64,000 bases of DNA from Candidatus Bathyarchaeia archaeon (lineage in GTDB: Bacteria > Patescibacteriota > Microgenomatia > PFEM01 > JAFGMK01): positions 206,961-270,960 of the forward strand of contig DATKWK010000023.1 of the NCBI GenBank assembly GCA_035529595.1. Reading direction: 5' to 3'. Below the pieces are notes generated by a model that had not been told where the DNA came from, made no database searches, and saw nothing but the letters and a program-made list of their open reading frames with translations. Position numbers and translations under genes: made by a program. Below are positions 13,885-62,339 of this stretch, in pieces. Position 1 is the first letter of the stretch. Each line of letters opens with the position of its first letter.

Positions 13885-14429
13885 AGAGCAAATGCATCCT
13901 ATATTGTCGGTTCGCGCTTTTTGACGCTGTGTCTGGGCGCAAAAAGACAGTGCACGGGGTAGGATTTACACCTACGAAACCGATTAAGGTGGCGGTTTTA
14001 CAGACCGCTGCATTTGCTACTCTGCCACCCGTGCCTTTCGGGCAATTAAAAAACCGTCCTTAATATAAGGACGGTTTTAACCGTGGTACCACCTTATTTG
14101 TCAGGGTTTGTTGGAATTAACCAAAAAAAACCGCCCAGAGGCGATTTACCCTAACCTCTCCGGCACTCCGGATGAACCGACATGCCTTAGCGCTGTAACG
14201 GGCGCGCCCGGAAGAACTTATTCCCGATCTGAAATTGAGGATTGATTCTTCAGCTCCAAGTGGGTAATTCGATCCGGGGATACGGTAAGCTTTCACCCGC
14301 CGCCTACTCTCTTTTGTCACTCCCCTTCTCTACTTCACCACTCATCAATGCCTTTTTCTAAATTGTTGCGGAATTTATATCATAAATCTTTTGCTCTTGT
14401 CAAGTTAATGTGTTAGAATTTTTACTGAA

Positions 14430-47533: not shown

Positions 47534-47654
47534 AAAAATTAGTAATTTTCTTTACCCCATACAAATTACTAGTTCGTTTATGCCCCCAAATTAAATATGA
47601 ATTAGTGACAAGCGACACGAGGCGAATCAAGACCGCCTGCAATTTCCTACGTAG

Positions 47655-47738
47655 TGCCGAGGGTGGGATTTGAACCCACACAAGGTTTCCCCCACAGGAT
47701 CCTAAATCCTGCGCGTCTGCCAATTCCGCCACCCCGGC
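47655..47738 (-). tRNA. tRNA-Leu(TAG), type II with a long variable arm
   Basis: GCCGGGGTGGCGGAATTGGCAGACGC..., anticodon loop TTTAGGA, T-loop GGTTCAAATCC; 84 nt; CCA not encoded. Confidence 0.85.
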
Positions 47739-47745
47739 ATTTTCA

Positions 47746-47988
47746 TTAAAGTGTCCGTTTTAAATATGATCTTCCAAAGCCAGATTTAAGTTGCTTTTCT
47801 CTAAGAATCGCTTTTTCCTTTGAAAGACAAGCTTCAAAGTAGACAAGATTAAAGGGTAGTCTATTTTTTGTTACCCTAATTTTCCCCAGGTTATGTTTTT
47901 TATATCTCTTTCTAAGGTTATGAGTCCATCCAATATAATATTTATCATCTAAGCTACTTTTTAATACGTATGTATAATAAAATCTCAT
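47746..47988 (-). CDS. GIY-YIG nuclease-family small protein (UPF0213/YhbQ-like)
   Basis: MRFYYTYVLKSSLDDKYYIGWTHNLRKRYKKHNLG carries the GIY...YIG plus R and HN core. The start is placed at the Met just after the tRNA-like fragment. Confidence 0.7.
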   Translation of the reverse strand: MRFYYTYVLKSSLDDKYYIGWTHNLRKRYKKHNLGKIRVTKNRLPFNLVYFEACLSKEKAILREKQLKSGFGRSYLKRTL

Positions 47989-47990
47989 TT

Positions 47991-48055
47991 CGCGTCTGCC
48001 TGCCCGCAATCGCTACGCTCAAGCGTTGCAGGCGGGCCGATTCCGCCACCCCGGC
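47991..48055 (-). other. 5' fragment of a tRNA-Leu gene (nt 1-19 and the D-stem 3' strand) interrupted by a 38-41-nt GC-rich hairpin insertion after G18G19; no anticodon or T arms
   Basis: The - strand reads GCCGGGGTGGCGGAAT-[cggcccgcctgcaacgcttgagcgtagcgattgcgggcagg]-CAGACGCG, then aa and the ATG of the GIY-YIG ORF. Confidence 0.6.
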
Positions 48056-55868: not shown

Positions 55869-55951
55869 CTCCTCTAAAGCTCATTTTATCAGAAATTTAG
55901 ACGTTTGGGGATATCTCCGAAGCTACAGCTTATAAAAGCATAAATTCTCTT

Positions 55952-56112
55952 GGGGTGAGCGACGGGAATCGAACCCGCAACATCTCCGGTAGGGAGGGGT
56001 GAGTGAGGGGAATCGCACCCCCGACCTCCTGTTCCACAGACAGGCGCTCTAACTACTGAGCTACACCCACCCCACCTCATCGGAGTGTTCTACCATTAAA
56101 CTACGCTCACCA
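55952..56112 (-). other. Outer tRNA-like gene (G-1, acceptor GTGAGCG/CGCTCAC, Gly-like D arm, canonical T arm, C73 and encoded CCA) whose anticodon region contains the tRNA-His gene
   Basis: 5' half g-GTGAGCG TA GTTT AATGGTA GAAC A CTCCG ATGAGGTGGG[tRNA-His]; 3' half CCTCCCTAC CGGAG ATGTT GCGGG TTCGATT CCCGT CGCTCAC C CCA. Confidence 0.45.
55998..56071 (-). tRNA. tRNA-His(GTG) with an encoded G-1 and an atypical T-loop (TGCGATT)
   Basis: g-GTGGGTG TA GCTC AGTAGTTA GAGC G CCTGT CTGTGGA ACAGG AGGTC GGGGG TGCGATT CCCCT CACTCAC C. Nested inside a second tRNA-like gene. Confidence 0.7.
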
Positions 56113-61798: not shown

Positions 61799-61852
61799 AT
61801 GTATGACTTTCCAAATTCAATCCGGATTGGTAAAATTAACCGATAGCTTAAT

Positions 61853-61938
61853 TGCCGGGTCGTCTAATGGTCCGCCTCGCCTCCGGCGAGCGAGACTTCG
61901 CCAAATCTGCCGAAGGCAAGATGAAGGCGAGCAGGACA
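61853..61938 (+). other. 5' fragment of a tRNA-Gln gene (nt 1-18 plus CAGGACA) interrupted by a 61-nt GC-rich hairpin insertion after G18G19; no anticodon or T arms
   Basis: TGCCGGGTCGTCTAATGG-[tccgcctcgcctccggcgagcgagacttcgccaaatctgccgaaggcaagatgaaggcgag]-CAGGACA, then t and the ATG of the GIY-YIG ORF. Confidence 0.6.
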
Positions 61939-61939
61939 T

Positions 61940-62230
61940 ATGTGGTATGTTTATATTCTAAAAAGCAGGTATTTTCCAAAATCCTATGTTGGTTGTACTA
62001 ATAACATTGAAAGGAGGTTAAAGGAACATAATGATGGTAAGAGTATCTTTACAAAACGATATCAACCATGGAATTTAATCAAAACAGAAATATTTAATGA
62101 TTGCAAAACAGCAAAAAAAAGAGAAAAGTTTTACAAGTCAGGAATAGGTAGAAAAAAACTAAAAGAGATTTTTTATAAATTGCCGGGTCGTCTAATGGCA
62201 GGACACATCCCTTTGAAGGATGATATCTAG
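61940..62230 (+). CDS. GIY-YIG nuclease-family small protein (UPF0213/YhbQ-like)
   Basis: MWYVYILKSRYFPKSYVGCTNNIERRLKEHNDG has the GIY-YIG core. The ORF runs 50 nt into the downstream tRNA-Gln gene. Confidence 0.7.
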   Translation: MWYVYILKSRYFPKSYVGCTNNIERRLKEHNDGKSIFTKRYQPWNLIKTEIFNDCKTAKKREKFYKSGIGRKKLKEIFYKLPGRLMAGHIPLKDDI

Positions 62231-62254
62231 GTTCGAATCCTAGCCCGGCAGCCA
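62181..62254 (+). tRNA. tRNA-Gln(TTG)
   Basis: TGCCGGGTCGTCTAATGGCAGGACA CATCC CTTTGAA GGATG ... CTAGGTTCGAATCCTAG CCCGGCA G CCA; U1:A72 pair; CCA encoded. Confidence 0.85.
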
Positions 62255-62339
62255 GAACGGGCACCCAAGGTGACCGGGGTGCCTAAAAAAGCCCTTGTTA
62301 CCTTGCAAAAAGTCACGGGGGGAAACTAAATCTTGATAT

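Follow-up and report, generated by a model that had tools for sequence, protein, structure and literature searches.

A minimal GIY-YIG nuclease gene flanked by a palindrome-split fragment and an intact copy of one tRNA gene: a candidate homing-type cassette recurring across bacteria

A 64,000-nucleotide stretch of DNA (contig DATKWK010000023.1 of assembly GCA_035529595.1, positions 206,961 to 270,960 of the forward strand), referred to here as the window, that is, the whole stretch that was analysed, contains two modules in which a minimal gene for a GIY-YIG nuclease is preceded by a fragment of a tRNA gene, split by a GC-rich palindrome, and followed by that tRNA gene in its complete form. 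One of them, module B, is found at a tRNA-Gln gene on the plus strand; the other, module A (47654-48055), has a matching anatomy and involves a tRNA-Leu gene on the minus strand (Table 1). A previous reading of the letters alone (the sequence-only reading) had described the layout of module B, and each of its elements proved to be present and placed correctly to the base.

In module B, the displaced 5' copy of the tRNA forms, together with 3 nt of the tRNA leader, a 21-nt exact direct repeat, AATTGCCGGGTCGTCTAATGG, with the intact gene (61850-61870 and 62178-62198). The 18 nt that belong to the tRNA occur exactly twice in the 64 kb, against an expectation of 0.01, and none of 100 shuffled sequences contained them at least twice. 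Matching exactly over 18-21 nt, the upstream fragments are thus true copies of the adjacent tRNA, as had been proposed. The palindromic insert has a GC content of 64%, compared with 27% in the open reading frame (ORF) and 35% in the flank, and folds into two hairpins (approximately 61871-61895 and 61898-61930) with a free energy of -27.1 kcal/mol (z = -3.25). The CAGGACA heptamer that completes the displaced copy is separated by a single T from the ATG codon at 61940 and includes a Shine-Dalgarno-like AGGA motif, 3 nt 5' of this start codon. At its 3' end, ORF B shares exactly 50 nt with the intact tRNA-Gln gene, such that its final 17 codons represent an in-frame readthrough of the tRNA; the conserved domain, in which the catalytic residues Y5, Y16, R26, H30 and E62 are all preserved, stops at about 62173. 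The promoter-like site upstream of the fragment is putatively the native tRNA-Gln promoter, which would now drive the fragment, the ORF and the tRNA. A further GC-rich hairpin, GGCACCCAAGGTGACCGGGGTGCC, lies at positions 62260-62283 of the plus strand, 6 nt 3' of the tRNA-Gln gene and without a T-run. It could serve as a processing or termination signal of the fragment-ORF-tRNA transcript.

In module A, the hairpin is followed by GGCAGACGCG and then by AA-ATG, and the boundary of the insert is ambiguous because GGC is present at both of its sides. A mechanical ORF call for this module (47746-48009, minus strand) begins at a TTG codon inside the hairpin and yields 87 amino acids, compared with 80 from the ATG. 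The two proteins share 42% identity (tblastn, 3e-12), and both match the Pfam GIY-YIG family. The insertion follows the GG of the D-loop at the same position in both modules, again as previously read, and both inserts open with CCGCCT. The insert of module B belongs to a CCNGCC...GGCNGG class of hairpins that occurs throughout the family, and both window modules conform to the pattern of the other loci described below. No third module and no similar hairpin was detected elsewhere in the 64-kb window.

Table 1. Elements of the two modules in the window.
Feature	Coordinates	Strand	Remarks
Module B: putative promoter-like site, TTTCCA-17-TAAAAT with TG upstream	61808..61836	+	Consensus match only; 16 nt 5' of tRNA fragment
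Module B: displaced tRNA-Gln 5' copy, nt 1-18, TGCCGGGTCGTCTAATGG	61853..61870	+	Exact repeat of 62181-62198
Module B: 61-nt GC-rich palindromic insert, double hairpin, TCCGCC at start	61871..61931	+	Family-wide CCNGCC...GGCNGG hairpin class
Module B: rest of displaced tRNA-Gln copy, CAGGACA = nt 19-25	61932..61938	+	Repeat comparison
Module B: GIY-YIG ORF B, 96 aa	61940..62230	+	Pfam GIY-YIG 1.5e-15; conserved domain = residues 1-78
Module B: intact tRNA-Gln(TTG), CCA-encoding	62181..62254	+	ARAGORN; Rfam 63.7 bits
Module A: displaced tRNA-Leu 5' copy, nt 1-19/20, GCCGGGGTGGCGGAATcGG (48055-48037)	48036..48055	-	One mismatch to tRNA (T17C)
Module A: ~37-nt hairpin insert, 68% GC, CCGCCTGCAACGCTTGAGCGTAGCGATTGCGGGCAGG	47999..48035	-	Boundary ambiguous by 3 nt
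Module A: rest of displaced tRNA-Leu copy, CAGACGCG, reaching nt 27	47991..47998	-	Followed by AA + ATG
Module A: GIY-YIG ORF A, 80 aa plus stop	47746..47988	-	Pfam GIY-YIG 3.9e-14; stop 7 nt 5' of tRNA
Module A: intact tRNA-Leu(TAG)	47654..47738	-	ARAGORN; Rfam

The same arrangement recurs widely. A search of contigs from one genome per species with a profile of the module B protein and its relatives gave over 500 matches, and the 80 best loci among them make up our set; the counts and the tree reported below comprise 88 ORF copies, 86 foreign ones and the two of the window. The 80 loci come from about nine phyla (at least eight or nine), including Saccharibacteria and many other lineages of the candidate phyla radiation (CPR)/Patescibacteria, WOR-1, Ignavibacteriota, Chlorobiota, Alpha- and other Proteobacteria, Bdellovibrionales, Nitrospira (Nitrospirota) and Omnitrophota. 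The Bacteroidota are represented, among others, by the cultured genera Ekhidna, Pedobacter, Terrimonas, Mangrovibacterium, Pseudozobellia and Pseudotenacibaculum, with Ekhidna lutea DSM 19307, Pedobacter albus, Mangrovibacterium marinum DSM 28823 and Pseudozobellia thermophila DSM 19858 as cultured carriers. The ORF and the adjacent tRNA are co-oriented at every locus with a detectable tRNA, and in 55 copies an intact tRNA (Arg, Gln, Leu, Ser, Val, Gly, Asn, Cys or Glu) starts a few nucleotides past the end of the ORF. In 43 of these 55 cases, the 5' end of the downstream tRNA itself (first 12 nt, up to two mismatches) reappears within 200 nt 5' of the ATG, compared with none of 55 control windows; among the 12 exceptions are several in which the hairpin precedes nucleotide 12 or the fragment has diverged. 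The GIY-YIG genes of relatives are thus overwhelmingly linked to tRNAs, with a tRNA or a piece of one on the same strand beside the ORF at all 80 foreign loci, an association on which the sequence-only reading had staked its proposal. This architecture is not described in the full-text literature that we searched, a scope that does not extend to subscription-only papers; the closest neighbours in it were papers on fungal mitochondrial homing genes, papers on the phage nuclease SegB and a superfamily survey of 2006.

In general, a module starts from the native flank on the upstream side, including a promoter-like site if one is recognizable, and continues with nucleotides 1 to x of the tRNA, one or more GC-rich palindromic hairpins, nucleotides x+1 to y, a spacer of 0-30 nt and the ATG of a nuclease ORF of about 78 codons, which is separated by 0-20 nt from the complete, functional tRNA. 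The partial duplication of the tRNA thus leaves the host gene intact. The repeat often extends into the leader of the tRNA by 3-12 nt (by at least 3 nt in 16 of 36 loci), and the fragments of Bacteroidota are situated right behind a TAnnTTTG -7 box. The presence of a promoter-like site 5' of the fragment suggests that the latter occupies the native position of the tRNA. The cassette lies within the tRNA transcription unit, and, judging from this sequence context, the ORF and the functional tRNA are probably both transcribed from the tRNA promoter.

Beyond the hairpin, the end of the upstream copy varies from nucleotide 25 to about 61 and in one case reaches nucleotide 75, with the longest copies ending at the T-loop sequence GGTTCGA(AT) (L010, L072, L075, L078 and L037). 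Locus L017 is mirrored: an intact tRNA-Val is followed after 1 nt by the ORF and then by a 3' partial copy of tRNA-Val, in which a hairpin replaces the anticodon arm. The partial copy is thus always truncated on the side that faces the ORF. In a distinct, alphaproteobacterial form (loci L018-L052, L065 and L070), an intact tRNA-Thr(GGT), tRNA-Leu or tRNA-Ser with a terminal CCA immediately precedes a conserved TCCGC...GCGGA region of about 115 nt (e.g., L027:2386-2500) and then the ORF, without any duplicated tRNA. This leader region matches no Rfam family, and its covariation is weak or unclear.

Other loci contain multiple units. At L006, L010 and L021, at least two fragment-hairpin-fragment-ORF units are arranged in tandem ahead of the intact tRNA, with a third, decayed unit at L010; altogether, decayed or ORF-less units or tandem arrays are found at L005, L006, L010, L021 and L048. 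The array at L048 (1900-2830) begins with three ORF-less units, each comprising a promoter region, nucleotides 1-22 of tRNA-Arg(TCT), a hairpin and nucleotides 23-34, and continues with a functional tRNA, a standard fragment-hairpin-ORF segment and a full-length copy of tRNA-Arg with a hairpin at the same D-loop site. At L003, the upstream fragment (TGCCGGGTCGTCTAACGG...TAGGACA) has 7 mismatches in 25 positions to the tRNA-Gln downstream of it; its exact counterpart is the functional tRNA-Gln of L016, and that of the window is nearly the same. L003 and module B have the GG|TCCGCC junction in common, and their ORFs are 55% identical, which places the L003 ORF among the closest to that of module B. 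Taken together, the foreign fragment, the shared junction and the close ORF suggest that the fragment travels, or is conserved, with the hairpin and the ORF.

Almost without exception, the upstream copy is split precisely by at least one GC-rich palindrome, typically starting with CCNGCC, with no target-site duplication around the hairpin. Hairpins of the CCNGCC...GGCNGG class are concentrated at the modules, with 64 instances within 200 nt 5' of the 88 ORFs compared with 22 in the other ~430 kb, several of which also adjoin a module. Their sequence varies with the clade of the ORF. Most Arg and Leu modules of Bacteroidota contain the perfect palindrome CCTGCCTGCCGGCAGGCAGG, the Gln and Asn modules of CPR bacteria and the Arg-CCT modules of Ignavibacteriota longer CCCGCC(T/C)CGAC...GGCGGG hairpins, the Ser modules CCAGCC..GGCTGG plus TCCGCC..GGCGGA, and the Gly and Val modules of CPR bacteria GTCGCC..GGCGAC in the position of the anticodon arm. 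Two to three hairpins per fragment are present at L012, L014, L015 and L075. An RNA-level hairpin was set aside as an explanation, because 47 inserts folded on both strands showed no asymmetry (the sense strand being more stable in 16 and the antisense strand in 19 cases, with 29 versus 36 G-U pairs); we therefore treat the palindrome as a DNA-level element. The insert matched no Rfam family at the gathering thresholds or at E<=1, the tRNA being the sole match, as was also the case for the alphaproteobacterial leader. The idea that the palindrome is exclusive to the cassette was rejected as well: the exact 20-mer CCTGCCTGCCGGCAGGCAGG occurs at 42 sites in 35 viral-labelled, mostly GC-rich IMG/VR stretches (L085-L119), only one of which (L116) is a true module with a neighbouring GIY-YIG ORF. 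Two of these palindromes lie inside the variable loop of a tRNA-Met (L086, position 8616; L109, 2239-2330), one of the genes being called by ARAGORN as a 92-nt tRNA, and several are bordered by direct repeats of 7-14 nt (L093, position 8396; L103; L087).

The encoded protein consists of a bare catalytic domain of about 78 amino acids and lacks an auxiliary DNA-binding domain, as judged from Pfam, alignments and a profile search of PDB sequences. Both window proteins contain the motifs and catalytic residues of the GIY-YIG superfamily (PF01541), and an alignment of 18 sequences, these two among them, shows no variation at residues Y5, Y16, G18, R26, H30 and E62. The best hits of the PDB search were the UPF0213 proteins BH0048 (1zg2, 1.4e-11) and EF2693 (1ywl, 2.7e-10), followed by SLX1 (1e-5) and, marginally, the catalytic domain of I-TevI (8e-3), and on the basis of their sequence we assign the window proteins to the prokaryotic Slx1-like/UPF0213 subfamily. 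UPF0213 proteins and SLX1 resemble the cassette protein in being minimal standalone GIY-YIG domains, and SLX1 acts structure-specifically on branched and stem-loop DNA. At 50% identity, the family comprises 24,269 clusters at E<=1e-3 and 6,326 at E<=1e-10. The superfamily survey of 2006 presents 'prokaryotic Slx1' as minimal, vertically inherited repair enzymes and does not mention a tRNA context (PMC1564403); thus, neither the tRNA linkage nor the fragment-palindrome context forms part of the family as described.

Pairwise dN/dS ratios of 0.02-0.24, syntenic lineages included, indicate strong purifying selection on the protein. In a neighbour-joining tree of the 88 copies, which is built on short sequences and therefore only indicative, the ORFs group largely by tRNA identity and not by host phylum. 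The Ser group combines CPR bacteria with a metagenome-assembled genome of Bdellovibrionales, the Cys group Bacteroidota with Ignavibacteriota and the Leu group CPR bacteria with Bacteroidota; the Gln group consists of CPR bacteria, and Arg-CCT, Arg-ACG and Arg-TCG form separate groups. Many of the database gene calls (among P0037-P0186) include 20-30 additional N-terminal residues, which is what readthrough of the hairpin would give. If the reading as a cassette is correct, it would account for such annotation artefacts as over-extended N-termini, ORFs entering tRNAs and tRNA pseudo-fragments.

The reading that we favour, and hold with about even confidence, is that modules A and B are two independent copies of a widespread selfish, homing-type cassette that encodes an Slx1/UPF0213-like nuclease and resides in tRNA genes. 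According to this model, the nuclease mRNA and the tRNA would be synthesized as a single transcript from the tRNA promoter, from which the tRNA would be released by RNase P. The nuclease would break DNA at or near tRNA genes, and recombinational repair via the two tRNA-derived arms, provided by the displaced copy and the intact tRNA, would place a copy of the ORF in a tRNA gene of that type which is still unoccupied, a process analogous to the homing of freestanding GIY-YIG genes, of which phage SegB is an example. The same repair process would also produce the tandem arrays of some genomes. The palindrome would be inherited along with the ORF and interrupt the displaced copy, mostly within its first ~23 nt, thereby leaving the functional tRNA as the only uninterrupted target and reducing the homology available for deletion of the ORF. 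Given the kinship of the protein with structure-specific Slx1, the palindrome may also be its binding or cleavage substrate. As signs of mobility or selfishness we count the divergent copies at different tRNAs, the arrays, the decayed units, the mirrored form, the fragment of L003 and the leader repeats. Moreover, the distribution is patchy and horizontally incongruent beside a conserved host gene, as seen from the tRNA linkage, the clades that track tRNA type and, again, L003.

Several observations weigh against a homing-type cassette. The analysis yielded neither a cleavage site nor an empty allele or a transfer event, and tblastn searches of phage and plasmid collections returned no homologue. 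The protein has no modular DNA-binding domain of the kind suited to a long homing target. The functional tRNA retains all tRNA-internal sequence, which leaves the escape of the host copy from a tRNA-directed nuclease unexplained. The most similar cross-phylum pair, L054/L064, had been considered a recent transfer based on its module-only similarity, an interpretation that was withdrawn once dS turned out to be saturated, since the similarity then reflects constraint. The long synteny and purifying selection observed in the Enterousia group and at L035/L060 (the 'Thiohalospira' contig L035 being a mis-binned Bacteroidales-like one) fit a gene useful to the host equally well. In Alphaproteobacteria, the hairpin region follows an intact tRNA without any duplicated copy, so that the hairpin cannot be solely a disruptor of a pseudo-copy, and 41 of the 42 palindromes in IMG/VR have no family ORF nearby. 

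With regard to a possible empty site in close relatives, a metagenome scan for the upstream flank joined to an uninterrupted tRNA-Gln returned only L083 and L084, which stem from an unrelated organism. There, a tRNA-Gln(TTG) gene (L083:1020-1091) is located between rplR (L18-like end) and rpsE (S5-like start); its 5' 25 nt and 8 nt of leader equal those of the window, its 3' half is different, and the 7-nt flank match is compatible with chance. For the hydrolase gene that flanks module B, no close homologues were found and, hence, no syntenic relatives.

The nearest experimentally studied analogue is SegB of phages T4 and T6, a freestanding GIY-YIG homing endonuclease encoded in a tRNA gene cluster (PMC2330249; PMC13096335). 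SegB cleaves within tRNA genes, at the T-loop motif RAWTSGAAC, shows a statistical association with tRNAs of many different isotypes and promotes recombination-dependent inheritance together with tandem segmental amplification of tRNA-containing units (PMC13096335; PMC2330249). It shares with the cassette the embedding of a GIY-YIG nuclease gene among tRNA genes, but it is phage-borne, depends on a C-terminal region for its toxicity and involves neither a partial tRNA duplication nor a palindrome, whereas the cassette is chromosomal and encodes only a 78-residue catalytic domain of the Slx1/UPF0213 branch. With about 220 amino acids, SegB is also the larger protein. The freestanding GIY-YIG ORFs of fungal mitochondria, such as the one in Allomyces atp6, insert into an essential gene and bring along a second version of its end, which preserves function and leaves a displaced pseudogene segment, and the same genomes contain GC-rich double-hairpin elements. 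In that case, however, the host gene is protein-coding and organellar, its 3' end is duplicated and the hairpins are not fixed in the displaced fragment.

A more far-reaching reading, which strikes us as rather improbable, holds that the nuclease and its cognate palindrome constitute an unrecognized class of mobile element, with structure-specific recognition of a hairpin or cruciform replacing a DNA-binding domain. The target-derived duplication would then make insertion into essential tRNA genes harmless, the palindrome would be both the recognition or cleavage site of the enzyme and the functional end of the element, and the solo palindromes in tRNA-Met variable loops and at other IMG/VR sites would be non-autonomous derivatives.

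The rival that survives best, and one we still think rather unlikely, is that of a domesticated or housekeeping nuclease, in which the Slx1/UPF0213-like protein would serve the host, for instance at highly transcribed tRNA genes, where it would process R-loops, hairpins or stalled forks, or with RNA as its substrate, while the fragment and hairpin would form a regulatory leader and the tRNA linkage would reflect co-expression. The low dN/dS values, the long synteny in Enterousia and at L035/L060, the classification of the family as vertically inherited repair enzymes (PMC1564403) and the conservation of the hairpin region after tRNA-Thr in Alphaproteobacteria, where no tRNA is duplicated, all agree with such a role. 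However, it is difficult to reconcile with the presence in one genome of several divergent copies at different tRNAs, with tandem arrays and decayed units, with ORF clades that track tRNA type across phyla and with the foreign fragment in L003. Nor would a regulatory leader have to reproduce the 5' end of the neighbouring tRNA exactly, and the hairpins show no sense-strand bias.

Unlikely, in our view, is a scenario reminiscent of repetitive extragenic palindromic (REP) sequences and REP-associated tyrosine transposases (RAYTs), in which the GC-rich palindrome would be the mobile unit and the GIY-YIG protein its structure-specific cutter, and in which the tRNA duplication would be a side effect of breakage, slippage or repair that the palindrome induces close to the gene of the enzyme. 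In RAYT systems, too, a nuclease-type gene is flanked by a cognate GC-rich palindrome that also occurs in gene-free form; RAYTs, however, are HUH/Y1 enzymes, REPs are present in hundreds of intergenic copies, and there is no tRNA target or target duplication. Mobilization of the palindrome would suit its co-variation with the ORF clade, its symmetric, DNA-type folding (sense strand more stable in 16 and less stable in 19 cases), the fragments with two or three hairpins at L012, L014, L015 and L075, the structure specificity of SLX1 and the array at L048, where a hairpin occupies one site in five tRNA copies, one of them full-length. The 42 IMG/VR 20-mers, with two in tRNA-Met variable loops and some between 7-14-nt direct repeats, point in the same direction, but 41 of them lack a nearby family ORF. 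Palindromes are, moreover, rare outside the modules in module-bearing genomes, with no further copies elsewhere in the 64-kb window, the enzyme belongs to the GIY-YIG and not the HUH/Y1 type, and the constant abutment of ORF and tRNA is not explained by this model alone.

We give little credence to a replacement cassette, in which an incoming ORF with a complete tRNA would displace the resident tRNA and leave its remnant upstream, much as fungal mitochondrial GIY-YIG ORFs supply a new end for the gene they enter. Such an event would readily produce the different tRNA-Gln alleles of the fragment and the downstream gene at L003 and the truncation of the partial copy on its ORF-proximal side in both orientations, but at most loci, including both window modules, the two tRNA copies are identical or differ by 1 nt, and the conserved hairpin in the remnant would be left unexplained. 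An ordinary remnant, be it a tandem tRNA duplicate decayed by chance, an att scar left by an integrase, an unusual tRNA intron or a split tRNA, is hardly credible: tRNA genes are common integration sites and the window does contain a 3' partial tRNA-His duplicate, but the same architecture is found at 80 loci, the 5' recurrence (43 of 55 loci versus 0 of 55 controls) and the Rfam null result exclude chance decay, an integrase scar and a tRNA intron, the complete downstream tRNA makes splicing unnecessary and, like the absence of an Rfam match of the insert at E<=1, argues against a group I intron, an archaeal bulge-helix-bulge (BHB) intron and a split tRNA, and the ~0.33-kb insert holds a GIY-YIG ORF and no integrase, with the 5' end duplicated, whereas islands and prophages that restore a tRNA gene by a carried partial copy duplicate its 3' end, encode a tyrosine or serine integrase and extend over kilobases. 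The recurrence thus supports the earlier claim of a repeatable process, such as homing, integration or cassette duplication, as opposed to chance decay.

Apart from the two modules, the window contains a T-box leader (13950-14357, minus strand; Rfam 94.5 bits at a gathering threshold of 93) directly 5' of a tRNA-Tyr gene, with an STM4013-family hydrolase encoded by the next ORF. The gene usually found downstream of a T-box is that for an aminoacyl-tRNA synthetase. The tRNA-His duplicate consists of a second T-arm and 3' acceptor strand, GCGGGTTCGATTCCCGTCGCTCACCCCA (approximately 55950-55985, minus strand), about 15 nt after the tRNA-His gene; it has the appearance of an att scar and comes without a hairpin or a GIY-YIG ORF. 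Since its gene content includes a bacterial RecG, a class A penicillin-binding protein (PBP1A), ThrS and the T-box leader, the window is bacterial, and the public label 'Candidatus Bathyarchaeia archaeon' (seen for P0035, 61025-61798), or the bin, is probably wrong.

If the homing-type reading is true, a family of more than 6,000 clusters at 50% identity, currently filed as an uncharacterized repair-type nuclease, would power an element of only ~0.33 kb that colonizes essential tRNA genes over much of the bacterial tree, including the CPR genomes, which are otherwise poor in mobile DNA. It would also raise the question of how a nuclease without a DNA-binding domain finds its target. Such an element would represent a new, intron-free way of occupying an essential non-coding RNA gene, achieved by duplication of the 5' part of the target and its interruption by a palindrome.

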